Source: an uncultured Verrucomicrobiota bacterium
GTDB lineage: Bacteria; Verrucomicrobiota; Kiritimatiellia; CAIKKV01; CAITUY01
NCBI GenBank assembly: GCA_964611575.1
Contig: CAZTAJ010000007.1
Location: 1,847-65,846, forward strand
Length of the DNA stretch: 64,000 nucleotides
Direction of reading: 5' to 3'
The notes under the pieces were generated by a model. It was not told the DNA's origin and did no database searches. It worked only from the letters and a program-made list of their open reading frames with translations. Positions within the stretch are counted from its first letter, which is position 1, and each line of letters begins with the position of its first letter. Shown here piece by piece: positions 2,868 through 26,862 of this stretch. A program made the translations under genes and the position numbers.

Positions 2868-5800
2868 GCACACCGTCCACCGTGAATTGCTTCCGTGCCG
2901 GGCCGGCCCTGTCGGATTTCCGGACCGTTGCGCTGATCCGGGCTTTCTCCGCAGGGGAGCCCGCCCTGCGTGTCGCCCGGGTCGAAACCGCCACGCTCTA
3001 TCTCGTGGAGGCCGCCGCGAATGCCGACTCAGCCCTCTGGCCCCGGGTGGCCGCCCTGCTCGGCACCGACCGACGGATCGAACCCGTCGTCCGCGACGGC
3101 TTCTTCGTGACCCCGCGCAAGGGCACCCTCTCGCCCTGGTCGTCCAAGGCCACCGACATCTTCCACAACTGCGGCCTGAATGAGATCCGCCGGGTTGAGA
3201 AGGGCAGCCTGTTTCAGGTCTACGACGCCACAGGGAAATGCCTGAGTCCCACCGTGTTGCGCACCGGCCTGCACCTTGTGCACGACCGCATGACGGAGGG
3301 GGTCTACCAGGACGTGTCGAACATCTTCCAGCATGTCGCGCCGGCCCCGCTGGTGTCGGTCGATATCCTGGGAGCCGGCATCGCCGCCCTGCAGGAGGCC
3401 AACGCCTCCATGGGACTGGCTTTGGCGGATGAGGAAATCAAGTACCTGTATGACGTGTATGCAGGCCTTAAGCGCAATCCCACGGACGTCGAACTGGTCA
3501 TGTTCGGCCAGGTCAACTCCGAGCACTGCCGGCACAAGATCTTCCGGGCGGATTGGATCATCGACGGCCAGGCGCAGACCACCAACCTATTCGACATGAT
3601 CCGCAACACGCACCGGAGGCATCCGGCCGGGACGCTGCTCGCCTATTCCGACAATTCCGCCGTCATGGAGGGATTTCCGGGGCAGTGGTACGAAATCCGG
3701 CATGACGGCCCGCCGCGTTACACGCGTGTGCAGGAACAGGTCGACATCCTGATGAAAGTCGAAACGCACAACCATCCCACGGCGATCTCCCCCTACCCCG
3801 GCGCCGCCACGGGGGTCGGCGGCGAGATCCGCGACGAAGGCGCCACGGGCATCGGCGGCCGCCCCAAGGCCGGCCTGGCGGCGTTCATGGTCTCCAACCT
3901 GCGGATTCCGGGTTTCCTAATGCCGTGGGAGAAGGACTTCGCCGAATTCCCCGCCCGCCTGGCCACGCCCCTGGAAATCATGACCGACGGTCCGCTGGGG
4001 GGCGCCCGGTTTGGCAACGAGTTCGGCCGGCCCCAACTCACCGGCCTCTTCCGCACGCTGGAACAGTCGTACAACCACCGCTACCGCGGCTACCACAAGC
4101 CGATCATGGTGGCAGGCGGAATGGGCAACATCAAACGCCGGCACGTCCACAAGAAGGACATCCCGCCACGCGCCCTGGTCATCCAACTCGGCGGTCCGGC
4201 TCTGCGCATCGGGCTCGGCGGCGGCGCCGCCTCCTCCATGGGCAGCGGCAGCAACGCCGAGAACCTGGACTTCGATTCCGTGCAGCGCGACAACGCCGAG
4301 ATCCAGCGCCGCTGCCAGGAGGTCATCAACGGCTGCATGGCGTTCGGCGATGCCAACCCCATTCTCAGCGTTCACGACATCGGAGCCGGCGGCCTCTCGA
4401 ACGGCTGCCCCGAGTTGATCGCCGCCACGGGGGGCCGCTTTGACCTGCGCGCCATCCCGAACGAGGAATCGTCCATGAGCCCCATGGAGATCTGGTGCTG
4501 CGAAGCCCAGGAACGGTACGTACTGGCCGTGATGCCCGAGGGGCTCGACCGCTTCATGACGCTATGCCGCCGCGAACGATGCCCTGCCCACGTCATCGGC
4601 GAGGCCACTGGGGATGGGCGACTGGTGTTGCACGACGCGCATTTCGGCAATGACCCGATCGACATTGACGTCCAGGTGATTCTCGGCAAGCCCCCTCAGA
4701 TGCTGCGTAATGTGCGCCACCTTGCCGAGTCCCATGCGGAGTTCGACGTCTCCAGCCTCGACCTGCGTGAGGCCATCGACCGCGTGCTGCATTTCCCCGC
4801 CGTGGCCAACAAGACCTTTCTCATCACCATCGCCGACCGCTCCGTCACGGGCATGGTCACGCGCGACCAGATGGTCGGACCGTGGCAGACGCCGGTCGCT
4901 GATGTGGCCGTCACGGCAGCCACCTACGATGGCTATGCGGGCGAAGCCATGGCGATGGGTGAACGCACGCCCGTGGCCATGGTATCCGGGCCGGCCTCCG
5001 GCCGCCTCGCCCTCGGCGAGGCGTTGACGAATATTGCCGGCGCGGCCATCGGGGCCATGGGGAACGTCAAGCTCTCGGCCAACTGGATGTGCGCCTGCGG
5101 CGAGGAAGGCGAAGATGCCGCCCTGTTCGATACCGTCAAGGCCCTGGGCATCGACCTATGCCCCACCCTCGGCCTCTCGATCCCCGTCGGCAAGGACTCG
5201 CTGTCCATGCGCACGACCTGGAAAGACTCGCACGACAAGACCATCAAGATGACCGCCCCGCTGAGCCTGGTCATCACAGCCTTTGCGCCGGTCACCGATG
5301 TCCGCCGCACCGTCACCCCCGACCTGAAACCCGTGCCCGACAGTTCACTGATCCTCATCGATCTTGGACGGGGACAGAACCGGCTCGGAGCCTCGACCCT
5401 GGCCCAAGTCTACAACCAGGTCGGGGGAACCACCCCGGATGTCGACCACCCCGCGGACCTGGCAGCCTTCTTTGCCGCCATGCAGGACCTGGTGAGCGAA
5501 GGCCTGTTACTTGCCTACCACGACCGGTCCGACGGCGGACTGTTCGTGACCGTGGCCGAAATGGCCTTCGCGGGCCGCCAGGGTGTGCGCCTCCATCTGG
5601 ACGAACCGGAGGGCGATCCCGTGCGTATCCTCTTCGCTGAGGAGTTGGGCGGCGTCCTGCAAGTGGCCGACCGTGATCTGGCCCGCGTGAACGACATCCT
5701 GCGCCGACATGAGCTGGGCGCCCTGTCGATGCTGATTGGCGGCCCCACCGCCGCCAAGACGCTCACCATCGAAGTTGCCGACCGCATCATCCTTGAGGAA

Positions 5801-13133: not shown

Positions 13134-14597
13134 TCACGAGGGTGCGCCGCCACGGGCCGCCAGGCGGAATGCCGCCTCTGGGCCCCGACTGCCGGCCGCA
13201 TACGCTTCCGGCGCCACGCGCCGGGACTCCAGGGCACGCAGAACCGGCGTGAAAATATCCCACGCGACCGCGAGTTCATCCGCCCGGATGAACAGACTGC
13301 GATCGCCCCGGATCACGTCGAGCAGCAGGCATTCGTACGCATCCGGAATTTCGGTGTTGAAGGCGGCCTGGTAGCGCAAGTTGAGCGGGGTCGACTGCAG
13401 CGTCATCTTGAGGCCCGGGACCTTATTCATGATGCGCATCTCGATGGCCTCGTCAGGCTGCACGCGAATCACCATTTCGTTGGCGCCTGACGGCCCCACG
13501 GCGTCACCGAACAAATCGCCCGGCGCCCGGCGGAACCGGATGCGGACTTCATTGACCCGAACGTCCAGCGCCTTGCCCGCCTCGATGAAGAACGGGATGC
13601 CGCGCCAGCGGTCGTTCCCGATGTGCAGCACCGCCGCGGCATAGGTGGGGGTCATCGAATCCGGCGGCACGGTCGGTTCCTGGGTGTACGCCGGTCTGTT
13701 CGGCGACGCCGTGTACTGGCCCACAACCAGGTCGTCAAGCGTGACCGGCGCCACGGCACGCAACAGGCGCACTTTCTCGTTCCGCACGGCGTCAGCCTCA
13801 AACCGGGCGGGGCGCTCCATGGCCAGAAGCGCGAGGATCTGCAACAGGTGGTTCTGCATCACGTCCCGAATGATGCCGAAGCCGTCGAAGTAACCGCCGC
13901 GCTGTCCGACCCCGACCGGTTCCTTCCACACGATGCGCACACTCTCGACATACTCGCGGTTCCACAACGGCTCGAAGACAATGTTGGCAAAGCGCAGCAC
14001 CATCAGGTTTTGCACGATTTCTTTCCCGAGGTAGTGATCGATGCGGTAGGTGTTTTCCTCGGTGAAGACCTTGTGCATCTCACGCACCAGTGCATCGGAT
14101 GAAGACCGATCAAGACCAAAAGGCTTTTCCACAACCATACGGGTCCATTCGCGGCCGGATCCGCACGCCACCAGTCCGGCATCGCCCAGCGCCCTCGCCA
14201 CGTCGAGGAACACACCGGGCGGAATGGCCATGTAGAAGACGCGATGGCCCAGCTCCGGCCCTTCGACCTCTCGCATGACCTGGTACAGATCCAGGAAGGC
14301 ATCCTTCGAGCCATAGGTGCCGGTGGAGTAGAAGCAACGCGCCAGGAATTCAGCCGTCCGGTCGGCACACGCCACACCGGGGGCGTAACGGCAGGTGAGA
14401 TTCTCGGAAACCCGCTGCCGGAATGCCTCGTTTGTGAACGGCGTGCGTGCCAGGCCGAAAATGTGGAACGGTTCGGGCAGCAAGCCCTGACAGAAGAGGG
14501 CAAACAGCGCGGGAATGATCTTACGCTGCGCCAGGTCGCCCGAAGCGCCCACAACGACGATCCCCAGCGGGCGCCCATCCGACAAGGAGGGTTTCAT
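13134..14597 (-). CDS. zwf: Glucose-6-phosphate 1-dehydrogenase
   Basis: GASGDLA, VEKPFG, RIDHYLGKE and RDVMQNHL. Start set at MKPSLS. Confidence 0.96.
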   Translation of the reverse strand: MKPSLSDGRPLGIVVVGASGDLAQRKIIPALFALFCQGLLPEPFHIFGLARTPFTNEAFRQRVSENLTCRYAPGVACADRTAEFLARCFYSTGTYGSKDAFLDLYQVMREVEGPELGHRVFYMAIPPGVFLDVARALGDAGLVACGSGREWTRMVVEKPFGLDRSSSDALVREMHKVFTEENTYRIDHYLGKEIVQNLMVLRFANIVFEPLWNREYVESVRIVWKEPVGVGQRGGYFDGFGIIRDVMQNHLLQILALLAMERPARFEADAVRNEKVRLLRAVAPVTLDDLVVGQYTASPNRPAYTQEPTVPPDSMTPTYAAAVLHIGNDRWRGIPFFIEAGKALDVRVNEVRIRFRRAPGDLFGDAVGPSGANEMVIRVQPDEAIEMRIMNKVPGLKMTLQSTPLNLRYQAAFNTEIPDAYECLLLDVIRGDRSLFIRADELAVAWDIFTPVLRALESRRVAPEAYAAGSRGPEAAFRLAARGGAPS

Positions 14598-14769
14598 GGC
14601 TTCTTTCCCGCAACCGCGACGGACCGTACGCGCCCCCCGCACGAGCCCTTTGAAGACTCCGCCGCGGGCGACTTCACACACCATCCCTGGCAGGCGACGC
14701 AGCGCGCATCCGAACACCACTGGCACACCCGGCAGTCAGGACAGGCATGTTTCTTTGAGCGGCACGCCT

Positions 14770-16443
14770 TCACGGCACACTGACTCCCGCGCCGCCGGAC
14801 ACGGGTTTGAGCACAACGTAGGTCGGCAGCCCCTTGACGCCAAAATGCTCCAGCGTCGCCCGCGTCGCCGCGTCATTCGGCCGTTCCGCCTGGCACTTTA
14901 CCACAACGAATCCCTGCAGGCTTTCCCGGACTCGCGCCTCTCGGAACGTGGTGGCGTCCATGGCCTCGCAGTTCTTGCACCAGGTGGCCCAGAAATCCAC
15001 GAATACGGGTTTCCCGGCGGCGTGCGCCAGGGCGACCACCCTGGCCCATGCCGCCGGTCCCTGGTCCGCCGACACGTGAACAATCCCGGCATCCGCCGGA
15101 CCCGCCGCACGCGGGCCGCGCCACCCCCGGACCGCCACCGAGGCGTAGTAGATGGCCAGGCCCATGATGAAGACCCCGAAACCTGCCTTGACCCGGGACA
15201 TCCAGACTCCGGGTTTGGGCATGAAGGCCAGCCCGGCCCCGGCCAGAGGCCATGGCAGCGCCATGCCGAGACCCAGTACGAAGGGCAACACCAACCCCAC
15301 GGCAGCCCCTGCCGCATACAGCGTGCCGGAAAGCAGCAGCACGGCGATAACCACTGGCGCCACGCATGCTCCGGCCAGAAGCGCCGCGATGCCCCCCATC
15401 CCCGCCGCCGCCACATAGCTGCCGCGCCGGGCGGGTGAACCGCCCGTCCCGCCCTGGAACCGCGTCAAGTCGATCTGAATCACATCGAACATGGCCAGCC
15501 CGAGAACCGCAAACACCACGGCAATGGCGGCATTGAACCCCGGGCTGGAATTCAACGCCCCGAACTGGGACCCGCTGAGCACCACCACCAGCCCGAGCAT
15601 TCCATAGACCACGGCGATACCCGCCCCGTAGGCCGCCCCAAGGCCGAACCCGCGCGCTCGCGAACTCCCCTGCGCCCCAACACCCAGGATTGCCAGATTG
15701 ACAGGGATCATGGGCAGCACGCAGGGCGTCAGATTCAACAGCAATCCACCCAGGAGAATGAGCACGACCGTCCATGTCGCGCCGAAACGGCGCAGAAACT
15801 CAGCCGGACTGGCGCTGAACAGCGCTGCAGTCTCACGGATCCGGATCCAAACGGATGAACTCCCCTGACTGCCGGCTCCGCGCCCGTGAAGCGCTTCGTC
15901 CAAGAACGCCGTGAACTCGGTTGCCCGGAGGTAGCCCACGGCGCGCTCTTCGATCTTCAGGGCGGCATCGAACGCCGGCCAGTCTCCGATGCCGTTCTCA
16001 ACGGGACGCGCCTCCGGCGGCACGTCGCGCACAACCGGTGCAAGCGGAAACAGGCGGGTCTGGGGAAAGAAACAGGTAGCCTCGTCGCACCCCTGATAAT
16101 CCACCTTCAAGACGAGTCCGGTTAACGTCGAAGCACCCATCCGGTAGCTCAGGACGAAATCGTTGGTGTAGACGTCGCGTTCATCGCCCGTGAAGGAATC
16201 GTGAATGCGCGTGGGTTTAGCCACGGCTGCGGAAACGAGCGCCAGGCCCCCCGTTTCCTGAACCCGGATATCGTCGGCATACAGGTGATGTCGCGCCGGA
16301 ACCGTGAACGTGACCGCCGCCACCCACCCGGTGCCGTCGGCGCTCGCAGACACGCCCACACCGAAGGGGTCCGCAACCCCCGCGCCGCTCCGGCCGGACA
16401 TCAACCCGACCACAGCAACTATCACTGCCCATCGTCGTCGCAT
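14770..16443 (-). CDS. dsbD: Thiol:disulfide interchange protein DsbD-like
   Basis: N-domain QGCDEATCF, membrane motifs NLTPCVLPMIP and GACVAP, thioredoxin WCKNC. Confidence 0.9.
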   Translation of the reverse strand: MRRRWAVIVAVVGLMSGRSGAGVADPFGVGVSASADGTGWVAAVTFTVPARHHLYADDIRVQETGGLALVSAAVAKPTRIHDSFTGDERDVYTNDFVLSYRMGASTLTGLVLKVDYQGCDEATCFFPQTRLFPLAPVVRDVPPEARPVENGIGDWPAFDAALKIEERAVGYLRATEFTAFLDEALHGRGAGSQGSSSVWIRIRETAALFSASPAEFLRRFGATWTVVLILLGGLLLNLTPCVLPMIPVNLAILGVGAQGSSRARGFGLGAAYGAGIAVVYGMLGLVVVLSGSQFGALNSSPGFNAAIAVVFAVLGLAMFDVIQIDLTRFQGGTGGSPARRGSYVAAAGMGGIAALLAGACVAPVVIAVLLLSGTLYAAGAAVGLVLPFVLGLGMALPWPLAGAGLAFMPKPGVWMSRVKAGFGVFIMGLAIYYASVAVRGWRGPRAAGPADAGIVHVSADQGPAAWARVVALAHAAGKPVFVDFWATWCKNCEAMDATTFREARVRESLQGFVVVKCQAERPNDAATRATLEHFGVKGLPTYVVLKPVSGGAGVSVP

Positions 16444-16466
16444 GAACCCTCGCTGCCGGTGAATAC

Positions 16467-16853
16467 TCAAGCCGCCGGCTGTTTCATCCTCGCAAGCACA
16501 ATCTGCAGGACTTCGCGCACAAAGGCGCACTCACATTCCAAGGGGCACGGGCTCAAGTCTTGCGCATGCAGGCAATGCCCGCCGCACTCCTTCTGGCCGA
16601 ACTTGCTGCCCTGGAACACGGGGCCCCTGTAAAGGTCGAAGAACTCACCGGCCCGGACGGACACCGTCGAGCCGCAGCCCTTATGCAAGTGGTTGAATAG
16701 AAAATAGCCGGCCTCCAGATGCTTCATCATGGCCTGGTAGCCCACCAGTGTCACCTCGGCATCGCCCAGAAAACCATCCCGGCTTGCCCACACATGCCCG
16801 CACCCTGAACACTGCTTGAACACCAGCCCCCCCCAATGCGAGACGAGCGGCAT
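16467..16853 (-). CDS. Cys-rich hypothetical protein, putative metal/Fe-S binding (start uncertain)
   Basis: FKQCSGC, FNHLHKGCGST, ECGGHC and CPLECECA; lies between ferritin and dsbD. Confidence 0.75.
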   Translation of the reverse strand: MPLVSHWGGLVFKQCSGCGHVWASRDGFLGDAEVTLVGYQAMMKHLEAGYFLFNHLHKGCGSTVSVRAGEFFDLYRGPVFQGSKFGQKECGGHCLHAQDLSPCPLECECAFVREVLQIVLARMKQPAA

Positions 16854-16913
16854 GGCAGCCGCTCGTCCTGCATGATCCTGTCGCGCCTCTACGGCCGGAG
16901 CCGCCCCGGCCCC

Positions 16914-17411
16914 CTACTCGGCCTTCGCCCGCTTTCCGAGCTGTTTGTCGATCATGAGGAGCGTCCCGGTGGAACTGCCCGCCATCTTCAACATCGTCAG
17001 AATATCGTTGTCGTTGGCTTCCTCTTCAACCTGTTCCTTGATATACCACTGCAAGAGCAGCTGAGTGGCATAGTCCTTCTCGCTTACCGCCAGATCCATC
17101 AACTCGTTGATCGACTGGGTGATGAAGCGCTCATGCTTGAGCGTGGCCTCGAACAGGCTCAGCAACGACTTGAATCCGGCCTTCGGCTTTTCGATCGCTC
17201 CCAATTCGACCGTAGCCCCCTGTTCCAGCAGGTACTTATAGAGTTTCTGGGCATGCGCCGTTTCTTCCTGATACTGCACGTAGAACCAACCACTGGTGCC
17301 CCGCAGGCCCAAGGCACTGGCATCGGCCGACATGGCGAGATATAGATACGCCGAGTACAGCTCTTTGTTGATCTGCCCATTCAAAGCTTTTTCGATTTTC
17401 TTTCCAATCAT
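16914..17411 (-). CDS. ftnA: Non-heme ferritin
   Basis: QINKELYSAYLY, EETAHA, HERFIT and WYIKEQVEEE ferroxidase residues. Confidence 0.94.
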   Translation of the reverse strand: MIGKKIEKALNGQINKELYSAYLYLAMSADASALGLRGTSGWFYVQYQEETAHAQKLYKYLLEQGATVELGAIEKPKAGFKSLLSLFEATLKHERFITQSINELMDLAVSEKDYATQLLLQWYIKEQVEEEANDNDILTMLKMAGSSTGTLLMIDKQLGKRAKAE

Positions 17412-17443
17412 AGTCGTTCCTTTCCGCAAGAGATTAGGACCCC

Positions 17444-17821
17444 TCACGCCTTCCACAAACCATGCACATTACAGAACTCACGCGCGCTCACGGCAGCGGC
17501 CGTCACGCCTTCAAAAACCGCGACGGGCGCCTGGCCCGGCTTCAGAAACCGTCGATGGACCTCATCGCCTGCGATCAATTCGATCCATTCAATGTAGTGC
17601 TTTTCCTCCATGGGATGCGGAACGCTGCCGACAGTGACCCGATAGCCATTGCTCAGCCGCTCGATGACCGGAGTGTGCTTTTCTTTGGAGGCATCGACCG
17701 TGTTCTCTTTGAACAACTTCATGGGTTTGCCGCAGCAAACCAGCTCACCCCCGCCGCCATGCAGAACTTCTGCAATGATACCACACGACTCGCATTTGAA
17801 AACTTCAAGTCGATCTGCCAT
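17444..17821 (-). CDS. dfx: Desulfoferrodoxin (superoxide reductase)
   Basis: KCESCG...LVCCG desulforedoxin domain; EKH, HPM, HYI and CNVHGLW. Confidence 0.95.
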
Positions 17822-17850
17822 GTTCGCCTCCTGTTCTATCTGTCTTCCGA

Positions 17851-18423
17851 TTACCAGTACTCTCCCGCGACCTCGAAAAATGCCCTCGGATGCGCGCACG
17901 CGGGGCAGGCATCGGGCGCGTGGGTCCCTTGATGCGTGTAACCGCAATGACGACAGCGCCATGTGACCGCGCGGTCACGCTGGAATACCCGTCCCGTTTC
18001 GATGTTCGCCGCCAACCCCAGATAGCGCTTCTGGTGCCCCTGCTCGGCCACCGCAATGGACTCGAAAATGGCCGCGATGTCGTCAAGACCTTCCTCACGG
18101 GCGACCCTGGCAAACCCCGGGTACATTTCCGACCATTCGTAATGTTCTCCGGCTGCTCCTGCCTTGAGATTATCTACCGTCGCCCCGACAACGCCTGCCG
18201 GAAATGCGGCTGTGATTTCGACCTCGCCGCCTTCGAGCAATTTGAAGAGCCGATGGGCGTGCTCGCGCTCCTGGTTGGAGGTTTCCTCGAAAATGTCGGC
18301 GATCTGAACAAAGCCGTCCTTCTTCGCCTTGCCGGCAAAAAAACTGTACCGGTTGCGCGCCTGCGACTCACCGGCAAAGGCCGTCAATATGTTGCGCTCG
18401 GTCCTCGTCCCCTTAACTTTCAC
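17851..18423 (-). CDS. rbr: Rubrerythrin
   Basis: [27 protein letters not shown], and C-terminal CRHCGY...CPACAHP. Confidence 0.96.
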
Positions 18424-18495
18424 GCGATGCTCCTTCTCTCAGCCTGATGTTGTCCTGCCCACCGGCCTGCGCAAGTTCCGTCGCAGGCCATCAAC

Positions 18496-18654
18496 CTATG
18501 TTTGGGGCGAGAATTCCCCCTTGCCCACACCACAGTCCGGACAGCACCAGTCGTCCGGAAGATCCTCGAAAGCCGTTCCCGGCACTATGCCGTGCTCGGC
18601 ATCGCCAACCTTGGGATCATAGACGTATCCGCACACGTTACAGACATATTTCAT
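18496..18654 (-). CDS. rub: Rubredoxin
   Basis: [14 protein letters not shown]...[15 protein letters not shown]; 52 aa after a GAGGAG RBS. Confidence 0.96.
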
Positions 18655-18756
18655 TATGACGAACTCCTCAGGATACCGGCCCACTTCATCGTTCAACCTG
18701 ATTCGTTGAACGTCCCATTTTACACTGCCAGCCGCGGGGCCTAACACAAGCCGGCT

Positions 18757-18984
18757 TCACTCGCGCCACCGTCCGCGGGAACGATGTACAAGTCGCTCAC
18801 GCTCAGCCACCCCCCGTATCTTGTAGGCGCAATCCCGCACAATGCCATACAGGGTCATACAGCCATCATCGCAGCTTGCGCCCTCGCCCTGACTTGCCAG
18901 CATAATCATATCCGCCGCCAAGTCAAGCGACCTCACTATATTGCGATTGTATTCCTCAGGCTTCCGTGCATCACTCTTGCGCAT
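18757..18984 (-). CDS. Small helical hypothetical protein, first gene after the sigma54 promoter
   Basis: Protein-like 75 aa ORF (NIVRSLDLAADM...CDDGCMTLYGIVRDCAYKIR). Start uncertain. Confidence 0.7.
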   Translation of the reverse strand: MRKSDARKPEEYNRNIVRSLDLAADMIMLASQGEGASCDDGCMTLYGIVRDCAYKIRGVAERERLVHRSRGRWRE

Positions 18985-18998
18985 GGTGATTTGAGTAC

Positions 18999-19013
18999 GC
19001 AAGTTACGTGCCG
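18999..19013 (-). promoter_or_regulatory. Sigma54 (-24/-12) promoter
   Basis: Minus strand CGGCACGTAACTTGC against consensus TGGCACG-N4-TTGC, with exact GG-N10-GC spacing, directly downstream of a sigma54 activator gene. Confidence 0.8.
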
Positions 19014-19080
19014 GTCCAGCGGAAACTGCGCCAGTAATACTATAAACAACATCCGGAGAATGGGTTGCGTCAGCGATGTT

Positions 19081-19134
19081 TGTCGCCATATAAGTGAGTC
19101 GGTGTCTCACACGTTGCTGCAAACCGATGTCTCA
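19081..19134. promoter_or_regulatory. Candidate upstream activator sites for the sigma54 activator
   Basis: TGTCTCA at 19103 and 19128, TGTCGCCA at 19081, and palindrome GTGAG-N7-CTCAC at 19094-19110; about 70-120 bp upstream of the -24 element. Confidence 0.45.
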
Positions 19135-19165
19135 TCGTCAAGAAGACCCTGCCCTTTGCGCCAAG

Positions 19166-20938
19166 TCAGGAGACACCGTCGCTATCGAGGAAGCGGTACA
19201 GTGTCGCGCGGGAAACGCCCAGCATCTTGGCGGCCGCGACCCTGTTGCCGCCTGAGCGCTCCAGCGCGGCGCGCACGGTGTCGCGATCGAGTCTCACCCG
19301 CAACCTGCCGATGCCCGCCAGGGCGGTACCCGGCGCCGGCGGCGGCGGCACAGGCGGCATGTGCACGGATTTCAGGGCTACCGGTGGCAGATGCTCCAAC
19401 CGAATGGCCCCGCTCTTGCATTTGATCAGGGCAAACTGTATCCAGTTCTGAAGCTCACGAACGTTGCCTGGCCAGGGATATGACACCATGAAACTGATGG
19501 TTTCATCGCTGAACGACAATTCTGAACGTCCGACCTCGCGGAGTGCGCGCTCCAGGAAGTGGTTGGCAATGAGGGGAATGTCAGTCGGCCGTTCGCGCAG
19601 AGGCGGCACGGTCAAGGGAATGACACCGAGGCGATAGAAGAGATCTTCGCGGAATCGTCCCGCCGCCATTTCCCTGGTCAGGTCCTTGTTTGTGGCGCTG
19701 ATGACGCGCACATTGACGCGGACGGTCTTCTCGCCGCCCACATGCACAAAACACCCTTCCTGGAGTACGCGCAAGAGTTTGACCTGCATGGCCGGCGATA
19801 CATCGCCGATCTCATCCAGAAAGATCGTGCCCCCGTCCGCCAGCTCAAAACGACCTTTCTTGTCGCGAATAGCGCCGGTAAAGGCGCCGCGAACATGCCC
19901 GAACAACTCACTCTCGAGGAGCCCCTCAGGCAGGGCGCCGCAGTTCACCGGCACGAAAAGCTTGCCGGCGCGCGGCCCCTCATTGTGCAAGGCCGCGGCG
20001 ATCAATTCCTTGCCGGTCCCGCTTTCGCCCTGGATAAGCACAGGGACATTCGACTCCGCCAACTCGGGAATGAGATCGAACAGGGCCAGCATTTTAGGGT
20101 CGCGCCCGATGATGCCCGCAAACTGCTCGATTTCACCGAGACGCCGCGCCAAACGTACCTCACGCGTCACATCCCGGAAACAGACGATGATGCCGACCTG
20201 CCGTCCCTGCTGGTTGCTCATGGTGTGCAGCGTCATCCCCACACGCCGCCGTTCACCCTGACGCGTGCAGACATCCAGTTCGCGGAATTCGCCGTCGGCC
20301 GGCAACGGCTGCCCGTCGCAGAACGAACATTTGCCTCCGCAGAGGCCACCCGACAAGGTGTCATGGCAGTCGTGATTAAGGACCTCTTCACGTGCATAGC
20401 CGGTGATGCGTTCGGCTGCGGCGTTGAAATAGAGGATCCGGCGCTGCATGTCATGGGCGATGACCCCTTCCGAAATGTGGTCAAGCACCAGATCGGCATA
20501 TTGCTTCACGTGAGCCAGTGCGTCCAGATACCCCTTGTCGAACAGGTCATCCACGAGACGGCGAATGTCATCGCGCACGGCCCTGAAGGCGGCCACCTCG
20601 CCGGAACCGACGGCCGGATCGGCAACCTCCCACTGCACCTGCGCAGGATTGCCGGGAAGCATCGGGATGCCCTGCGCCGCCGTTCCGCCCAAGGTGACGA
20701 CCATGTCAAAATTCCTCACGGAAAGAGCGTCCAGCGTCTGGGTTCCCTGGGGTCGAATGTCGGCACCCGCCTCGGCCATGACCTGAACGGCCAGCGGTTG
20801 CACGGCCCCGGATCCGGTGCTCGCGCTGTAGACGAGGACGTCAGGTCGGGCCCGCATACGAGCAAAGCCCTCTGCCATCTGGCTCCGACAGGAATTGCCA
20901 TCGCACGAGAAAAGAAGATGGATGCGTCGTTCGGCCAT
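19166..20938 (-). CDS. Sigma54-dependent activator: ArsC/LMW-PTP-like domain + PAS + AAA+ + Fis-type HTH
   Basis: N-terminal CDGNSCRSQMAEG; PAS (NAAAERITGY); GESGTGKE, GAFTGA, FLDEIGD and WPGNVREL; HTH AAKMLGVSRATLYR. Confidence 0.92.
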   Translation of the reverse strand: MAERRIHLLFSCDGNSCRSQMAEGFARMRARPDVLVYSASTGSGAVQPLAVQVMAEAGADIRPQGTQTLDALSVRNFDMVVTLGGTAAQGIPMLPGNPAQVQWEVADPAVGSGEVAAFRAVRDDIRRLVDDLFDKGYLDALAHVKQYADLVLDHISEGVIAHDMQRRILYFNAAAERITGYAREEVLNHDCHDTLSGGLCGGKCSFCDGQPLPADGEFRELDVCTRQGERRRVGMTLHTMSNQQGRQVGIIVCFRDVTREVRLARRLGEIEQFAGIIGRDPKMLALFDLIPELAESNVPVLIQGESGTGKELIAAALHNEGPRAGKLFVPVNCGALPEGLLESELFGHVRGAFTGAIRDKKGRFELADGGTIFLDEIGDVSPAMQVKLLRVLQEGCFVHVGGEKTVRVNVRVISATNKDLTREMAAGRFREDLFYRLGVIPLTVPPLRERPTDIPLIANHFLERALREVGRSELSFSDETISFMVSYPWPGNVRELQNWIQFALIKCKSGAIRLEHLPPVALKSVHMPPVPPPPAPGTALAGIGRLRVRLDRDTVRAALERSGGNRVAAAKMLGVSRATLYRFLDSDGVS

Positions 20939-21011
20939 GAGTACATCTTGTCCAAAGGCTGGGGAGCATTCTGTCGGTGCAACCGCACGAATGCAAGCCC
21001 GTTACAGCCCG

Positions 21012-21848
21012 TTACGGTAAAGGCGGTTTCGACAGGGTAAGCCGTCGCCACTGCTGAAAGACAGCCAGCGCCTCGCGATGTACGGCAAGCACGTCCCGGA
21101 TCATGGCAGGCTCGTTGTCAGGCGTAACGCCGGGCGCGACACTTTTCACGACGAACGAGAGCCTTTCTTCGCTGGCCCAGGCCGGCTGGCGCAACCGCAG
21201 GAACGTCAGCAGATCCGTGCGGGAGCTGTTCCAGCGGGCCCGGAACCACGCTCCGACCGAGACCAGCGGATGGCGGAGCGTTTCCCGCGTAATGCCCCGA
21301 GGAATCCAGCGCGGGTCTTCCGGTCCATCAACCCGCGGAAAGGCCATGGAGCGGATATCCTCGTTCATGGCGACGAAATCGCCGGCTCTCAGGATCGTGG
21401 TTGTCGCAATTGACACCTCCCCGCCCGGCGACCTCAGTCGCCAAACCTGCACTGTGTCCCGAGGCTCTCGGGGAGTCGGGTCCGACACTCCGGCCTGAAT
21501 CAAGTCCACGTCATACGACTTGAGCCGCATACAAGTGGGCATGTTGTAACCATGAACCAGCCGGACCAGGGTCGTCCGGCCGCCACGCCGCACCTCCATG
21601 GCGACAATATTCGGCTCCGCGGGATCATTGGTCGAAACCGGCACCATCCGGCTCATGCCCCCCTTCAAGGCGGGTTGAAACCCCCGGAAATCGGCGGCGG
21701 TCAGATCGAAGGGGCTGAAAGGACGGCGACTGGCCCGTGCCATCAGTTCCCACACGCCGGTCAAGGCGATGCAGATCAACAGAATGGACGGCACCACCCA
21801 TTCGCGTGAACGACGCTCCACAACGATGGGATCCTCTTCGGGGTTCAT
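21012..21848 (-). CDS. Exosortase-locus protein, EpsI-like periplasmic protein with an N-terminal TM helix
   Basis: One N-terminal hydrophobic helix; HGYNMPTCMRLKSY resembles the EpsI H-x-P-x-x-C-Y motif; genomic context. Confidence 0.5.
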   Translation of the reverse strand: MNPEEDPIVVERRSREWVVPSILLICIALTGVWELMARASRRPFSPFDLTAADFRGFQPALKGGMSRMVPVSTNDPAEPNIVAMEVRRGGRTTLVRLVHGYNMPTCMRLKSYDVDLIQAGVSDPTPREPRDTVQVWRLRSPGGEVSIATTTILRAGDFVAMNEDIRSMAFPRVDGPEDPRWIPRGITRETLRHPLVSVGAWFRARWNSSRTDLLTFLRLRQPAWASEERLSFVVKSVAPGVTPDNEPAMIRDVLAVHREALAVFQQWRRLTLSKPPLP

Positions 21849-21871: not shown

Positions 21872-23293
21872 TCAGCGCATCTCGCGTTCCAGGCCGAAAA
21901 GGACGATACGCAGCGTACGCAGCAGGATCCGCAGATCAAGCCCGAATGAAAGATTCTGGAGATAGTACATGTCGTATTCCAGCTTGGTCTTGGCATCCTT
22001 CACCGACGCACCGTACGGGTAGCGGATCTGTGCCCAACCCGTGAGGCCCGGGGGTATGTTTTCACGCTCGCGGTAGAGGGGGATCTCCTTTTCCAACTGG
22101 GCGGCCAGCTCGGGCCGCTCCGGGCGAGGCCCGACGAGACTCATGCTGCCTTTCAGTATGTTGATGAACTGGGGCATTTCGTCCAGACGATACCGGCGCA
22201 GGAATCGTCCGATCGTCGTCACGCGCGGATCCTGCAGGGGAGACCAGACCGCCCCCACCCCATGTTCCGCCCCATGCACCATGGTCCTGAACTTGTAGAT
22301 CAGAAACGGATGCCCGAATCGCCCCACCCGCTCCTGGCAGTAGAACACCGGACTTTGTGGCGCCGAGGCCTTGATCAACAAGGCGACCAGGGCACAAATG
22401 ATGAGGGCAGGCACACCGATCAACAGCACGATGACCACGTCGGACACCCGCTTGAAGCGCATGACAACCGTCGAGGCAAACCCAAGGCTGGCCTGCATCA
22501 ACCAAGCCTCATTGATCAAGTCAAGCGGCACACGCCCGGCATACACTTCCGCCACGTTAAGCGCCGTGAGCACGGGAACGCCTTCGAAACGCAATCGCCG
22601 CAATTGCGAATGCAGTCTGGCGGCATCCTCCTCCTTCTCCAGACCAATGAGGATGACATCGACCGACAGCGAACGGATGACCGACGCCAGCGTTTCCGCC
22701 GTGGCCCGGATGACCGGCACCCCCTCCGCCCGAGGACCGAGCGTCGGCGTCGCCCCGCGGGTATCCACCTCGATCAATGCCGTGACCCGGTGCACCGGTC
22801 GAATGCCGGCATGCTCCACCATCTCCAGCACCTGCCGTGCCTGTGGCCCGGCCCCCACCACCGCCACCCGGTAACCGAAGGCATCCTTCCGGAAAAGGAA
22901 ATAGTAGATGACCAACCGCATCGACAGCCACAGGACCGAGTAAAACACCAGGGTCAACACCAGCACACCGCGGCCCACCAGCAGACCCAGCCAGGCATAG
23001 GACGTTGTGCTGACCACGAGCAGCGCCATGCCGATGGAAAAGAGCCAATTGACCACCATGTTGAATCGCGACACACGAATCTCGAAACCGTAGGTGCCGG
23101 TCACGTAGTTGGCGACAATGATGGTGGCGCCCATGTACATCCACCCGGAGAGATTCTCGAAGAGGTAAGGCTGCAGGGCTGCTCCACCCAGGCGCACGAT
23201 GATCGCCGCCACGACGCCGACAGCCAGACAGAGGGCGTCCAGTGCGGCCATCCTCACAATCTGGGTGTCGAGATGACTGCGATGAACAGCCAT
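21872..23293 (-). CDS. Priming polyprenyl-phosphate sugar phosphotransferase
   Basis: N-terminal TMs; KRVSD, YKFRTM, DPRVT, LDEMPQ, MSLVGPRPERP, PGLTGWAQI and KLEYDMYY. Confidence 0.93.
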   Translation of the reverse strand: MAVHRSHLDTQIVRMAALDALCLAVGVVAAIIVRLGGAALQPYLFENLSGWMYMGATIIVANYVTGTYGFEIRVSRFNMVVNWLFSIGMALLVVSTTSYAWLGLLVGRGVLVLTLVFYSVLWLSMRLVIYYFLFRKDAFGYRVAVVGAGPQARQVLEMVEHAGIRPVHRVTALIEVDTRGATPTLGPRAEGVPVIRATAETLASVIRSLSVDVILIGLEKEEDAARLHSQLRRLRFEGVPVLTALNVAEVYAGRVPLDLINEAWLMQASLGFASTVVMRFKRVSDVVIVLLIGVPALIICALVALLIKASAPQSPVFYCQERVGRFGHPFLIYKFRTMVHGAEHGVGAVWSPLQDPRVTTIGRFLRRYRLDEMPQFINILKGSMSLVGPRPERPELAAQLEKEIPLYRERENIPPGLTGWAQIRYPYGASVKDAKTKLEYDMYYLQNLSFGLDLRILLRTLRIVLFGLEREMR

Positions 23294-23296
23294 AGT

Positions 23297-25549
23297 CTAC
23301 TCCGACGACAGCACGCCACCCCGCAGCCAGCGCTTCACCGTGCTCCGCATCCGGCTGAACCGACCGCCCACCGCATGCCGGCCATGCTCGTCGTAGAGAT
23401 CGTAGTTGTAGCCGTACTTGTAGGCGTAACTGTAGTAGGCATAGTTCGGGTATTGGTAGGCGTAGTAGAGGCTGCTGATCCTGTGCATCTCGATGCTGTT
23501 GACGATCAGCCCGATCACATGCACATCGCCCAGCATGTCCAGTGAGTACTTGATGACCGGCTTGGAGGTCTTATTGGCATGCGCCACGTAGATCACGCAA
23601 ACAAGGGGGCAGTTGGCCAGAATGACCGTGTCGGTCACACGCAGAACGGGCGCCGAATCCATCATGACGAAATCGAACTTGTCGACGACATCGCTCAACA
23701 TCCCTTCCAGGCCCGCCGCATGCAGAAGTTCCGACGTGTTCTTTTCGACAGTGCCCGCCGGGATAAACCACAGGTTGTCGTGCGGCGTCGCACACACGAC
23801 CTCGCCCAGGGGCCGTCGGTCGCGCAAGACATCGATCACCCCCGGGGTACGCTCGCACTCCAGTGACTTGTGCAGAACGCCACGCCGCAGGTCCATGTCG
23901 ATCAAGAGGACGCGCTTCCCTGTCTTTGCCATCATGATGGCAAGATTGAGGGACGTAAGCGTCTTCCCCTCTTTGGAATCGGCGCTCGTGATCAGGATGA
24001 CCTTCTTGCCGGCCTTTTCGACCGCCGAGAGTACGTTCGTCCGCAGGGCACGGTAAGCCTCCGCCGCCCCCGACCGGTGCTGTTCGCTGACAATCGGCCG
24101 AATCCGCGTCGTCAGATCGCTGTGCACCCAGTAAGGGATGCCACCAAGAAACGGGACCCCGACGACCGACTCGACATCGCTCACCGACTGCACTTTGTCA
24201 TCGAAGAAGTACGCGACCATCGCCAACGCCAGCCCCGAACCAATACCGGCCACCAAGACGGTCACAAGGATCTTCCACGGGTCAGGCCAGGCGGGTTTTG
24301 GATTGGTGCGTACAGGCACCACCACCGCGAAATGTTCCCCCTTGATTTCCTTCTCAATCCGCAGATCGTTCAGGCGGCCATACAATTCCCCGTACATTGT
24401 TTCCAGTCGTGCCACGGCCATCGTAAGGTGGCGCAAGTCAGCGCCTTTGCGACTGGCAAGCAGAAACGAGTTCTTCCAGCGCCTCTGGGCTTCGTCCAGC
24501 GCATTGATTTGCATGCCGAGCGCCGATGCCCTCTGCCTCAAACGGACATATTCGACCTCCGACTGCAACTCCGTGTCCCTGCGAATCGCGGCCATCTCGT
24601 CATCGATGGATCGCAGCTTCGGATTATCGGGCTGCATGTGCGAGGTCAACTCTGCCCGTTCACGTTGCAGACGGGCAAGCCTGAGGCGCTTGTCCTGGAA
24701 AGCGCCGCTCCAGTCATCCGGGCGAGCAGCCCCCATCCCGGGCTCATTTGTCACGCCGCCTGCCGATGAAGAGGTGGACGAGGACAACGCCCCAGTCTCC
24801 TTCGTCAACGCCATGACGTCACGAATGACCTCGGGGGCTTCGCCCTTCAGCCCCGGGTATTGCAGTTCCAGCATCCACTTCTCGGTGCTCAGCCTCTGAC
24901 TGCGGTTGACCAGGTCATTCAGGTAGCCCAACTCGAAAGAACCGCGAGCCTGAACGTACTCCATCTCATTGACGCGCTGGTACTCGATCACATCGTCTTC
25001 GGCTGAGCGAATCTGCTCACGAAGCCGGGATAGTTCTTCCTGCAAAACTCGTTCCGCCGACCCGAACGAGTCCTGCTTCACGACCTCCCGCTGGAGTTGG
25101 AACTCCCGGTTCACTTCCCGCAGAAAGGCCCGGGCATACGCCGGATGGGAATTCCGGATCGACAAGGTGATCATGAACCCGTCGCCAACCTCCAGGCCGA
25201 CCGTTAAGGCGGGCCACAGTTCTTTCCCGTTGCCACCCAGGCGCGACAGCCATATGGGGGCCAGTCGCTCCACGATCCTGGCCCTGAACGCCTCGCTCCT
25301 CAGCAGGCTGACATGCGACTGACTCTGAGAGGAATGATATCCCTGCGATTCAATCTTTGTACTCGGATCGCGGTAGATGAACAACCGGGTAGCCGTGTCG
25401 TATTGCTTAGGCGTGAACTCCAGGTACAGGACTCCGCCCAGCAGACAATAGAGGAAGCAGATGAGAATCAGCTTCCAGCGGAATACCAATATGCCAAGGT
25501 AGATCCGAGGATCGATCTTCTTCTGTTCAAAGGTATCGTTTACAGGCAT
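23297..25549 (-). CDS. wzc: Polysaccharide co-polymerase / BY-kinase (Wzc-like)
   Basis: Two TMs around a coiled-coil region; EAYRALRT, Walker A SKEGKT, DMDLRR and DSAP; Tyr-rich tail. Confidence 0.9.
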   Translation of the reverse strand: MPVNDTFEQKKIDPRIYLGILVFRWKLILICFLYCLLGGVLYLEFTPKQYDTATRLFIYRDPSTKIESQGYHSSQSQSHVSLLRSEAFRARIVERLAPIWLSRLGGNGKELWPALTVGLEVGDGFMITLSIRNSHPAYARAFLREVNREFQLQREVVKQDSFGSAERVLQEELSRLREQIRSAEDDVIEYQRVNEMEYVQARGSFELGYLNDLVNRSQRLSTEKWMLELQYPGLKGEAPEVIRDVMALTKETGALSSSTSSSAGGVTNEPGMGAARPDDWSGAFQDKRLRLARLQRERAELTSHMQPDNPKLRSIDDEMAAIRRDTELQSEVEYVRLRQRASALGMQINALDEAQRRWKNSFLLASRKGADLRHLTMAVARLETMYGELYGRLNDLRIEKEIKGEHFAVVVPVRTNPKPAWPDPWKILVTVLVAGIGSGLALAMVAYFFDDKVQSVSDVESVVGVPFLGGIPYWVHSDLTTRIRPIVSEQHRSGAAEAYRALRTNVLSAVEKAGKKVILITSADSKEGKTLTSLNLAIMMAKTGKRVLLIDMDLRRGVLHKSLECERTPGVIDVLRDRRPLGEVVCATPHDNLWFIPAGTVEKNTSELLHAAGLEGMLSDVVDKFDFVMMDSAPVLRVTDTVILANCPLVCVIYVAHANKTSKPVIKYSLDMLGDVHVIGLIVNSIEMHRISSLYYAYQYPNYAYYSYAYKYGYNYDLYDEHGRHAVGGRFSRMRSTVKRWLRGGVLSSE

Positions 25550-25602
25550 GCAAGCTCCGTCGCACAGGAGAATGATCCTTCAGAGGCGGGCCCGGCCCAG
25601 GG

Positions 25603-26862
25603 TCAAAAGAAGGCAAATCGGCGGGCACGGACAACAACACGGTCGCCCGATTCCAGGACAAGGTCATTCTTCGGATCACCCACACTCATCAAATCGCTCC
25701 CATTGACCAGGAATGTCTTTTCGCGCCCGTCTTTGGCCGTCCGCACCACCTGAATCCGGTCAGCCCTGGCAAAACGAGGCAACCCGCCGATCTTGAACAA
25801 CAGGTACATCACTGTACAGGGCTCATTCTCCGCAAAATCCACAACGCCCCGGCGCGGCACCTCGCCCAGAAGCAGGATGCGTTTCCCGCCGCCGCTGACC
25901 CTTCCCGGCTGGGTGGTTTCATAAGTAAAGACGTAGGCCATGTCATTATTACGCAGCAGAACATCGGGAACCTGGAGCCGTCCGTCCGACGACGACAGCA
26001 CATACACCTCCCCAGGTGCCGCAGGGCCAAACGGCGTGCGCATGCCGCCACGCACGATCTTTACACGGGCGTTATCGCGATTGCCGCGCAACCCCCCGGC
26101 GCGGCGCAAAGCTTCATTCATTGTTATTGTCGCGCCAGCCCCAATCTTGATCTGTGCCGGCATATCGACGGCACCCAACACCGCCACCTGATCGTACGAT
26201 GCCTTCGCGATCTTGACGCTCACGGTAGCGCGATTCAGATACCGGCCCTCCAACGCATTTCGGATAGCCGCCTCCGCTTGATCGACATTCATGTCCGACA
26301 GGAAGATCAGACCCACGTAACCGAAATCGATGGCGGAGGCGCTGTTAACCAAATACCGTCCATTGAGGCTGGGATCCTCCGACACCGAAACCCAGAGCAG
26401 CGTCTCCGGTTGGATCGTGGGCGCCGTCATCTTGATCATCGTCGGCTCTGCAGCGAGGTTGGACGACACCCCGACCGGCGCAGGAACACTGGGCGCAGGA
26501 ACACTGGGCGCAAGAACACTGGGCGCAGGAACACTGGGCGCAAGAACAGCCACTGGCACGGGAACCGTCGATGCCGGAGCGGGAGCGACTACAGTCTCCG
26601 GGACAGTACCTGTGACTGCGGAAACCTGAGCGGGCGCAACATCAACTGCGGGCACGATGGCAGGGGGAGGCACATCGACCGGTTCAACCGGTGTTGCAAG
26701 GGGCTGGGAGTCCGCCATGGCTTCCGCAATGATCTGCTGGACGTAGTCGTCATTACTCGGGGTGGCACACCCACCCGCCAGGATCGATATGCCCAAGGCA
26801 CACATCCCAACGAGCAGAGGCATGACCACTCGCCCCCATCTGTCCGGCCAGGCCCAATTCAT
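25603..26862 (-). CDS. wza: Polysaccharide export lipoprotein (Wza-like, SLBB domains)
   Basis: Lipobox LAGGC, Pro/Val/Ala linker, poly_export domain and SLBB repeats (ALRRAGG, LESGDRVVV). Confidence 0.82.
   Translation of the reverse strand: MNWAWPDRWGRVVMPLLVGMCALGISILAGGCATPSNDDYVQQIIAEAMADSQPLATPVEPVDVPPPAIVPAVDVAPAQVSAVTGTVPETVVAPAPASTVPVPVAVLAPSVPAPSVLAPSVPAPSVPAPVGVSSNLAAEPTMIKMTAPTIQPETLLWVSVSEDPSLNGRYLVNSASAIDFGYVGLIFLSDMNVDQAEAAIRNALEGRYLNRATVSVKIAKASYDQVAVLGAVDMPAQIKIGAGATITMNEALRRAGGLRGNRDNARVKIVRGGMRTPFGPAAPGEVYVLSSSDGRLQVPDVLLRNNDMAYVFTYETTQPGRVSGGGKRILLLGEVPRRGVVDFAENEPCTVMYLLFKIGGLPRFARADRIQVVRTAKDGREKTFLVNGSDLMSVGDPKNDLVLESGDRVVVRARRFAFF
26477..26548. repeat. 15-bp coding tandem repeat, about 4.8 copies
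   Basis: GGCGCA(G/A)GAACACTG repeated; encodes APSVP/APSVL in the Wza linker. Confidence 0.9.

Follow-up and report, generated by a model that had tools for sequence, protein, structure and literature searches.

What controls a set of oxygen-defence genes that lie directly behind the gene for a sigma54-dependent activator? The locus that raises this question lies in a 64,000-nucleotide stretch of DNA from an uncultured Verrucomicrobiota bacterium (GenBank assembly GCA_964611575.1, contig CAZTAJ010000007.1, positions 1,847 to 65,846), which we call the window. It encodes an activator whose N-terminal domain resembles arsenate reductase (ArsC), followed by a small gene and by genes for rubredoxin, rubrerythrin, desulfoferrodoxin (superoxide reductase) and ferritin. 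In anaerobes, rubrerythrin and superoxide-reductase genes are typically governed by PerR/Fur repressors, which work with sigma70 and sense by metal-catalysed histidine oxidation. A first-pass annotation of the window proposed that a non-catalytic ArsC fold had been reused as a thiol or oxyanion sensor, placing defence against reactive oxygen species (ROS) under sigma54 control. We assign a probability of roughly 0.65 to a different division of labour, in which the protein is a one-component activator of the OrpR type that would sense through an iron-sulfur (Fe-S) PAS domain, bind TGTCTC repeats and control the defence operon from a -24/-12 promoter. About 100 related loci point to such sigma54 and Fe-S PAS control of anaerobe oxygen defence, unlike the usual PerR/Fur explanation.

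Domain structure of the activator

The activator gene (19166..20938, minus strand) encodes 590 residues comprising an ArsC/LMWPc-like domain (residues 9-133, 20540..20914; Pfam LMWPc, E-value 1.3e-15), a PAS domain (residues 150-262, 20153..20491; Pfam and structure model), an AAA+ sigma54-interaction domain with its lid (residues 276-523, 19370..20113; Pfam) and a Fis-type helix-turn-helix (HTH) DNA-binding domain (HTH_8, PF02954, residues 552-582, 19193..19285; E-value 5.4e-10), all on the minus strand. Residues 276-442 match Sigma54_activat (PF00158, E-value 5e-68), followed by AAA_lid_14, and both the Walker A sequence GESGTGKE and the GAFTGA motif (residues 351-356) are invariant across the homologue alignment. 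The same genome encodes sigma54 itself (rpoN, contig C151, 199 bits); with this AAA+ domain, HTH, rpoN and the nearby promoter described below, the protein has the features of an enhancer-binding protein. The genome contains seven AAA+ matches, among which the activator alone has this type of PAS domain, the next PAS being 30% identical.

Gene callers place the start at Met21, both in the window protein (P0001, 570 aa) and in its closest relative (P0002, 571 aa), and the internal ATG is preceded by GGAG. This start would remove the residues encoded by 20879-20938 (minus strand), and the P-loop with them. The 590-aa form is preferred because homologues align from residue 1.

The PAS domain and its cysteine triad

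The cysteine cluster that the first-pass annotation had noted in the PAS domain, C-x8-C-x3-C-x2-C, is present as C191-H-D193-x6-C200-x3-C204-x2-C207 (20318..20368, minus strand), and the GAFTGA motif that it had called intact is indeed so. The triad C191, C200 and C204 is complete in 118 of 119 homologues, and the fourth cysteine, C207, is found in 86 of the 119. Residue by residue, H162, C200 and C204 are conserved in 99/99 homologues and D163 and C191 in 98/99, while H192 is kept in 87/99 and position 193 is D or E in 78/99. In three Myxococcota relatives (L005, L018 and L067) the triad reads C-x9-C-x3-C, one residue longer, and the ArsC-like domain carries an insert of about 25 residues after the TLC motif. 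A model of residues 1-270 has a mean confidence (pLDDT) of 83.8, and its PAS half resembles heme and LOV PAS domains in Foldseek.

The triad has a known counterpart. According to PMC8359166, OrpR (DVU2106) of Desulfovibrio vulgaris Hildenborough is a sigma54 activator with a redox-sensitive [4Fe-4S] PAS domain, in which C52, C61 and C65 are fully conserved with a conserved D/E54 nearby, and C52-x8-C61-x3-C65 provide the cluster ligands. OrpR becomes blind to redox when the PAS domain is deleted or these cysteines are changed to serine (C52, C61 and C65; the plasmid table also lists C70), and it is active in the reduced state and is shut down by a rise in redox potential (PMC8359166). Given that the triad is fixed in the activator family and has the spacing of the OrpR ligands, the PAS domain is the likely sensor, by sequence and by analogy, and the ArsC fold would be accessory to it.

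The ArsC-like domain

Residues 8-131 match Bacillus subtilis ArsC (1jl3) with an E-value of 1.4e-21 (HMMER), and the Pfam LMWPc score is 58.3 against a cut-off of 23.2. The best Foldseek match is a thioredoxin-type ArsC (1jl3_A, TMt 0.85, 38% identity), with pI258 ArsC structures at TMt 0.84-0.88; of 15 solved relatives, the best 14 carry ArsC or Low molecular weight phosphatase family titles, including two named 'Arsenate reductase (ArsC2)'. The residues reported in the first-pass annotation bear comparison with the structure. The P-loop CDGNSCRS and the aspartate are kept, C12, C17, R18, S19 and D107 pairing in the HMMER alignment with Cys10, Cys15, Arg16, Ser17 and Asp105 of 1jl3, and both resolving cysteines are lost, with G85 and I92 in the columns of Cys82 and Cys89 (TLGGTAAQGIP in the activator, TLCGDAADKCP in 1jl3).

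A search with residues 1-270 returned 281 proteins of similar length; among the 120 listed, all have sigma54 domains and most have LMWPc, and the few source names are Lentisphaerae, Bacillota, Sumerlaeota and Sedimentisphaerales metagenome-assembled genomes (MAGs). The N-termini were scored by pattern. From the 120 matches we removed 12 without the PAS anchor pattern and the window's own entry (P0001); adding the window protein gave 108 rows, and dropping 16 with short or unrecognised N-termini left 92. The Cys82/Cys89 pair was also counted by pattern (C-x6-C), the MAFFT columns being shifted there in the 120-sequence alignment, and a few of these matches, such as CDLVITLC, are spurious, most of them in rows that lack Cys10. 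A Cys10-equivalent is found in 28 of the 92 N-termini, with Arg16 alongside in 23 of those 28. All of Cys10, Arg16 and the C-x6-C pair are kept in 19/92, the window's own pattern (Cys and Arg, no C-x6-C pair) is seen in 4/92, and 20/92 have neither the Cys, the Arg nor the pair.

Read from the sequences, three N-terminal architectures stand on one PAS/AAA+/HTH core: ArsC-like (the window, L002, L004-L012, L014, L017-L020 and L067), GAF-like as judged by eye (L021, L023, L027, L032 and L041, with an N-terminal region of about 170 aa and the PAS triad kept) and no N-terminal domain (L024, L026, L028-L031 and others); L022 has an extension of similar length to the GAF-like region. A quick maximum-likelihood tree was built with four paralogous activators from the window's genome as its root. 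The deeper branches are those of ArsC-bearing forms, and a single 21-row clade (SH-aLRT 99) contains the forms with a GAF domain or with PAS only. This clade also holds the ArsC-bearing L011 and L012, so that the ArsC domain has been lost or gained more than once. In such a survey of architectures and neighbourhoods, which the first-pass annotation had suggested as a check, the defence-gene neighbourhood recurs, as detailed below, and in sister regulators a GAF-like domain, or none, stands where the ArsC domain is.

With the fold kept and the catalytic residues drifting, the domain cannot be a catalytic or P-loop-thiol device in most members of the family, and it is best seen, from these sequence comparisons, as a largely decayed enzyme fold serving as an optional accessory module. 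In the window protein itself, C12, C17 and R18 may add a thiol or oxyanion input. A stronger role, close to the one first proposed, would make the P-loop the primary sensor, either as a thiol switch (a C12-C17 disulfide or sulfenate) or as an arsenate/phosphate site that gates the AAA+ domain. The intact Cys, Arg, Ser and Asp with the resolving cysteines gone would fit a non-turnover site, the Foldseek match to ArsC is confident, and in mammalian low-molecular-weight protein tyrosine phosphatase (LMW-PTP) two P-loop cysteines form a reversible disulfide with H2O2. Two relatives also speak for it: L017, which lacks the PAS triad, retains the P-loop Cys and Arg, and the operon of L015 holds an ArsP-type permease. 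Nevertheless, we consider the P-loop unlikely as primary sensor, and the ArsC fold finds no support as the main sensor. Most relatives lack the Cys10-equivalent (present in 28/92, with Arg16 in 23, while 20/92 retain none of the residues), the window pattern is confined to 4/92, no ars genes are linked except in L015, and regulators with a GAF domain or no N-terminal domain drive the same small-gene/defence operons, whereas the PAS triad is fixed and far better conserved.

Promoter and TGTCTC repeats

A near-consensus -24/-12 site facing the defence genes about 150 bp past the activator stop had been predicted, and it is found 154 bp past the stop at 19166. The promoter CGGCACGTAACTTGCG occupies 18998..19013 on the minus strand (GG at 19012-19011, GC at 19000-18999), with the core motif GGCACGTAACTTGC at 19012..18999 (minus strand) and a predicted +1 near 18987, taken as 12 nt after the C of the -12 GC. 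The same-strand defence genes downstream are confirmed. However, the first gene after the promoter is a 75-aa open reading frame (ORF; 18757..18984, minus strand), and rubredoxin, which had been placed first, comes later. Upstream lie three candidate activator sites on the minus strand: a TGTCTC hexamer overlapping the activator gene's last codons (19170..19175) and two further hexamers, both GAGACA (19128..19133 and 19103..19108).

Among the 17 activator-seeded loci, the window included, 10 have a sigma54-like 16-mer scoring at least 9/12 with GG and GC fixed, located 47-74 nt before the start of small-gene homology; a relaxed scan adds four loci at 10/12 (L004 and L021-L023). In the 330 nt before the small gene there are 58 hexamers, distributed over all 17 loci, a density of 10.3/kb versus 0.53/kb elsewhere in the loci. 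Upstream of the promoters they are often arranged as TGTCTCA-N4-TGTCTCA plus a more distal TGTCTC-TT-GAGACA. The association holds in an independent sample of 80 metagenome loci seeded on the small gene, where a promoter scoring at least 9/12 lies within 120 nt in 59/74 loci (46/1,311 random windows) and one scoring at least 10/12 in 48/74 (9/1,311), and at least two hexamers are present in 33/67 (8/1,026 controls). Across several phyla the same layout recurs: TGTCTC repeats, sigma54 promoter, small gene, then defence genes.

In the activator's own genome the hexamer occurs 939 times (0.197/kb). There are 2,584 sigma54-like sites, only six of which have at least two hexamers within 250 nt upstream, and the window site ranks first with three. 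Next in rank comes a perfect sigma54 promoter, TGGCACGCTTGTTGCA, which lies on contig C78 (L082, about 4050-4760, minus strand) with a tandem TGTCTCAtcTGTCTC about 125 nt upstream. The gene downstream encodes a signal-peptide protein with a rhodanese domain and, judging by these elements, is likely a second target of the same activator.

The defence operon and its transcription

Behind the small gene, all on the minus strand, lie genes identified by Pfam as rubredoxin (18496..18654, 52 aa from an ATG at 18654), rubrerythrin (17851..18423), desulfoferrodoxin (17444..17824) and ferritin (16914..17414), and then a Cys-rich protein of 128 aa without a Pfam or NCBIfam family (16467..16853). Relatives of the 128-aa protein are found downstream of the small gene in four other loci (L096, L097, L098 and L100). 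A scan of 15900-19300 detected no intrinsic terminator on the minus strand; the one terminator-like site there lies on the plus strand at 17658-17675.

Eight sequencing runs from two studies of freshwater metagenomes passed a threshold of half the window's sampled words, with 0.92-1.00 of them present, and two of the eight are metatranscriptomic libraries of one sample, whose contigs were compared with 14500-21500. One RNA-library contig covers 16182-18976, ending in Illumina adapter at 18976, and a second, from the other run, covers 16229-18962. Both span the small gene to the 128-aa gene, the last in the contig, and both end about 10-25 nt from the predicted +1. DNA from this sample assembled into a contig that runs on through 17097-21500. 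The ends of the RNA-library contigs hint weakly at a transcript 5' end close to the predicted +1. RNA-library contigs over the activator gene are short and shallow, and contig depth cannot rank genes.

The ATG at 18984 is the only plausible start of the small gene, so that a +1 near 18987 would leave almost no leader. The promoter sits at -29 in the window and at -29 and -30 in the two nearest relatives of the small gene; leaders in Desulfobacterota loci measure about 25 nt.

Might the promoter match be fortuitous, so that some other regulator governs the defence operon from a sigma70 promoter and the activator has different targets? The bare motif is no commoner in the window than expected by chance, a sigma70-like site, though weak (9/12), is present at 18926-18899, and such genes are usually under PerR or Fur. 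On the other side, the promoter, repeats and small gene hold their relative positions across phyla, the RNA-library contigs begin upstream of the sigma70-like site, and a search for the FUR family (Fur/PerR/Zur) found no match in the genome assembly, which is 88.7% complete, while matching 13 of 14 control genomes. We therefore regard a fortuitous match as very unlikely. With rpoN present, the promoter and repeats position-conserved across phyla and the RNA contigs spanning the operon, sigma54 control of the ROS-defence genes by this activator, as the first-pass annotation proposed, is well supported, the dependence on sigma54 being inferred from these elements.

The 75-residue protein

The lead gene of the operon encodes a protein with invariant A30, G33, D39, C42, D51 and E63. 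Its predicted fold is a two-helix hairpin (residues 9-36 and 40-69; pLDDT 90.2) with the invariant D-x-G-C at the turn. It belongs to no family in Pfam or NCBIfam, and the Atlas gives unnamed clusters only. The family is large nonetheless: a profile search recovered at least 3,949 clusters at an E-value of 0.001 or better among 8,000 scored candidates, and among the 120 clusters listed, a Pfam domain is absent throughout and the only name given is 'hypothetical protein'. Foldseek against the PDB gave nothing at an E-value below 1; generic helical hairpins and an encapsulated ferritin, at 1.1-1.2 or above, were discounted.

Relatives of the small gene lie directly downstream of an activator homologue in 16 fetched loci (tblastn), which often also carry rubrerythrin, desulfoferrodoxin, ferritin or rubredoxin; in L026 and L028 the small gene comes after a rubredoxin gene. 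Seen from the small gene, at least one redox-defence gene lies within 4 kb downstream on the same strand in 44/48 loci, and an activator is directly upstream in 17 of the 35 loci with at least 2.5 kb of flank (8 ArsC-bearing, 1 GAF-bearing). The small gene tracks the promoter (59/74) and, in about half of the well-flanked loci, the activator, while the enzymes vary, which suggests a regulatory or chaperone role for the protein.

A complex of the activator with the small protein was predicted with a score of 0.40, the best of three controls scoring 0.00; contact agreement between the runs is at least 97%, and partner pLDDT is at least 77. The mark applied was reached by 116/157 solved complexes and 2/215 mismatched pairs; at scores of 0.60 or below it was reached by only 18/157 solved complexes and by both passing mismatches. 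The modelling thus lends weak support to a direct interaction.

Neighbouring genes

A DsbD homologue and a glucose-6-phosphate dehydrogenase follow the operon (13134-16530, minus strand), as they do in L017, and could link the supply of NADPH and the reduction of periplasmic thiols to the defence genes. The RNA-library contigs over this region are separate from the operon contig. In related loci, neighbours were identified by a Pfam scan of 188 of 315 crudely called ORFs, those dropped being mostly short opposite-strand and distant ORFs. The genes found there encode rubrerythrin, desulfoferrodoxin, ferritin, rubredoxin, AhpC, a flavodiiron protein, cytochrome bd subunits I and II, NifU with cysteine desulfurase, formamidopyrimidine-DNA glycosylase, thioredoxin-like proteins, DsbD, nickel superoxide dismutase, a DJ-1-like protein and multihaem cytochromes. 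Hybrid-cluster protein and a rubredoxin-reductase-like flavoprotein occur beside relatives without the small gene. The multihaem cytochromes follow the small gene in L021 and L022; the latter is labelled 'archaeon' yet is nearly identical to the deltaproteobacterial L021, and this contig was probably mis-binned.

Directly upstream of the activator in the window is a polysaccharide-export cluster (21872-26862, minus strand) with a Wza-like exporter, a sugar transferase and a 750-aa AAA_31 protein that has a Tyr-rich C-terminal tail and resembles bacterial tyrosine kinases (BY-kinases). BY-kinases usually pair with LMW-PTPs. That the ArsC-like domain is a working enzyme, either an arsenate reductase or phosphatase using a low-molecular-weight thiol instead of the Cys82/Cys89 relay or a Wzb-like partner of the BY-kinase-like protein 2.4 kb upstream, is most improbable: the nucleophile Cys, Arg and general-acid Asp are retained, 19/92 relatives keep Cys10, Arg16, Cys82 and Cys89, the single-Cys mycothiol-dependent ArsC 3rh0 is among the structure matches, and the Tyr-rich AAA_31 protein and export genes are at hand, but most relatives lack the nucleophile, the domain scores 98.5 bits against a cut-off of 174.3 for the NCBIfam family arsC_pI258_fam (TIGR02691), its best matches are ArsC rather than PTPs (YwlE, an arginine phosphatase that has the LMW-PTP fold but is not an ArsC, reaches only 4.6e-6), and no BY-kinase or polysaccharide-export protein was found among the 188 neighbour ORFs scanned in related loci, where the adjacency is thus not conserved.

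Proposed mechanism

In the OrpR-type mechanism that we favour, C191, C200 and C204 of the PAS domain would ligate an iron-sulfur cluster, the fourth ligand being C207 or D193. The cluster would report cellular redox or oxygen stress and set whether the AAA+ ring engages sigma54. The HTH would bind the TGTCTC repeats about 90-165 bp upstream of the -24/-12 promoter, where the AAA+ motor would remodel sigma54-RNA polymerase. The resulting transcript, with little or no leader, would encode the hairpin protein, rubredoxin, rubrerythrin, desulfoferrodoxin, ferritin and the Cys-rich 128-aa protein, and its output would be the small protein together with rubredoxin-dependent reduction of peroxide and superoxide and iron storage. 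The domain set, the residue conservation, rpoN, the conserved promoter, repeats and gene set, and the RNA-library contigs over the operon are what this scheme is built on; cluster binding, recognition of the DNA site, sigma54 dependence and the direction of the switch are what we infer. As to direction, we lean slightly towards 'on under oxidant stress', opposite to the logic of OrpR, because the regulon includes repair and detoxification, Fe-S assembly and 8-oxoguanine repair genes.

Several observations weigh against this mechanism. The Lentisphaerae relative L017 (6010-7725) lacks the PAS triad, with two loop cysteines left, and yet keeps the locus, its gene order being that of the window's operon tail (small gene, ferritin, DsbD, glucose-6-phosphate dehydrogenase) without rubredoxin, rubrerythrin or desulfoferrodoxin. 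The cysteine loop is also the least confident part of the model (pLDDT 58 at residues 201-210). At the DNA level, the motif GGCAC-N5-TTGC occurs once in the 64-kb window, while at least one occurrence is seen in 65/100 shuffles, so that the weight of the promoter comes from its conserved position in relatives; the first position of its -24 element is C rather than T. Only about half of the small-gene loci show at least two hexamers, and 18 of the 35 well-flanked ones have no adjacent activator. The RNA contigs, from one sample, give no strand, level or exact ends, and the libraries possibly contain DNA; the source organism is an uncultured freshwater MAG. Finally, OrpR binds the palindrome GGGCGYRTTTTGCGCCC, whereas the activator loci show TGTCTC repeats; it targets only the orp cell-division operons, whereas the window holds the small gene, rubredoxin, rubrerythrin, desulfoferrodoxin and ferritin; and it is active when reduced (PMC8359166), a logic that would turn defence genes off under oxidant, which is counter-intuitive.

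A more elaborate version would join three inputs in a widespread, PerR-independent master switch for the oxygen defence of anaerobes in several phyla: the Fe-S PAS domain, a redox input from the ArsC fold (the P-loop thiol here, or a thioredoxin-read Cys82/Cys89 disulfide in the 19/92 relatives that keep all the residues), and the hairpin protein as a feedback partner binding the activator. We offer it as a speculation that is rather unlikely to hold as a whole. The simpler OrpR-type regulon is probably widespread in anaerobes of several phyla and apparently undescribed. If it is as proposed, the sensing chemistry of OrpR extends to a much larger regulon, and an unannotated family of at least 3,949 small-protein clusters gains a functional context. 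The locus would also be a case of the ArsC enzyme fold decaying into a regulatory module, and the predicted cis-elements make the regulon testable and usable for MAG annotation.

Comparison with known systems

In the literature searched, which mostly excluded subscription journals, we found no description of a sigma54 or Fe-S PAS regulon over rubrerythrin or superoxide-reductase genes, of an LMWPc-Sigma54_activat fusion or of the 75-aa protein. The sigma54 regulome of D. vulgaris Hildenborough and a 2025 cross-phylum sigma54 regulon paper make no mention of rubrerythrin, ferritin or TGTCTC. The genome paper of C. hydrogenoformans was considered as a precedent and set aside, since rubrerythrin and sigma54 regulators appear there in places that have nothing to do with each other.

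The operon is of the same target-gene class as that of PerR/Fur, and no FUR-family gene was detected in this genome (88.7% complete). NreB of Staphylococcus is an oxygen-sensor histidine kinase with a [4Fe-4S] PAS domain, whose cysteines bind an oxygen-labile cluster, but its cysteine pattern differs from that of the activator. The ArsC-like domain shares the fold of thioredoxin-coupled ArsC (B. subtilis 1jl3 and S. aureus pI258 1ljl; TMt 0.85-0.88, 33-38% identity), and the P-loop Cys, Arg and Ser and the Asp align; it differs in having Gly and Ile for Cys82 and Cys89, in falling below the family cut-off, in being fused to a transcription factor and in lying outside any ars operon.

In role, the closest parallel is PexR of Myxococcus xanthus, a sigma54 activator that responds to H2O2 by inducing ahpC and katB and whose sensor is an auto-inhibitory N-terminal GAF domain that binds Zn/Fe (PMC12754779). 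That paper (December 2025) presents PexR as the first H2O2-sensing enhancer-binding protein and cites no redox- or stress-linked relatives other than OrpR, AdhR and RtcR. As described there, PexR and the activator are alike in placing a sigma54 activator over oxidant-defence genes instead of OxyR or PerR. Unlike PexR, which combines a GAF domain with peroxiredoxin and catalase targets, the window combines a PAS triad and an ArsC-like domain with rubrerythrin, superoxide reductase, ferritin and rubredoxin, and a Pfam scan of the window activator found no GAF domain.

In the proposed mechanism, the closest parallel is OrpR (PMC8359166). Both proteins have a PAS/AAA+/HTH core and are one-component regulators adjoining their own sigma54 promoter, and C191-x8-C200-x3-C204 with D193 reproduces the OrpR spacing, acidic residue at +2 included. 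Between the two triads the numbering shifts by 139 residues, the length of the added ArsC-like domain. By eye against Figure S2 of the supplement, the two proteins agree at 20 of 50 ungapped positions, among them the three cysteines and the aspartate, and an FN-AAE-ITG block ahead of the triad is shared. Besides its different targets and DNA site, the activator differs from OrpR in some 140 extra N-terminal residues, in GAFTGA where OrpR has GAFTDA, and in the fourth cysteine, C207, that is common in its family (86/119). By these sequence comparisons the activator would work in the manner of OrpR and is, given the differences in targets, site and GAFTGA, not an orthologue of OrpR. Sensing of the OrpR type and a role like that of PexR were thus already known; what the locus adds are the target set, the DNA motif, the lead gene and the accessory domain.

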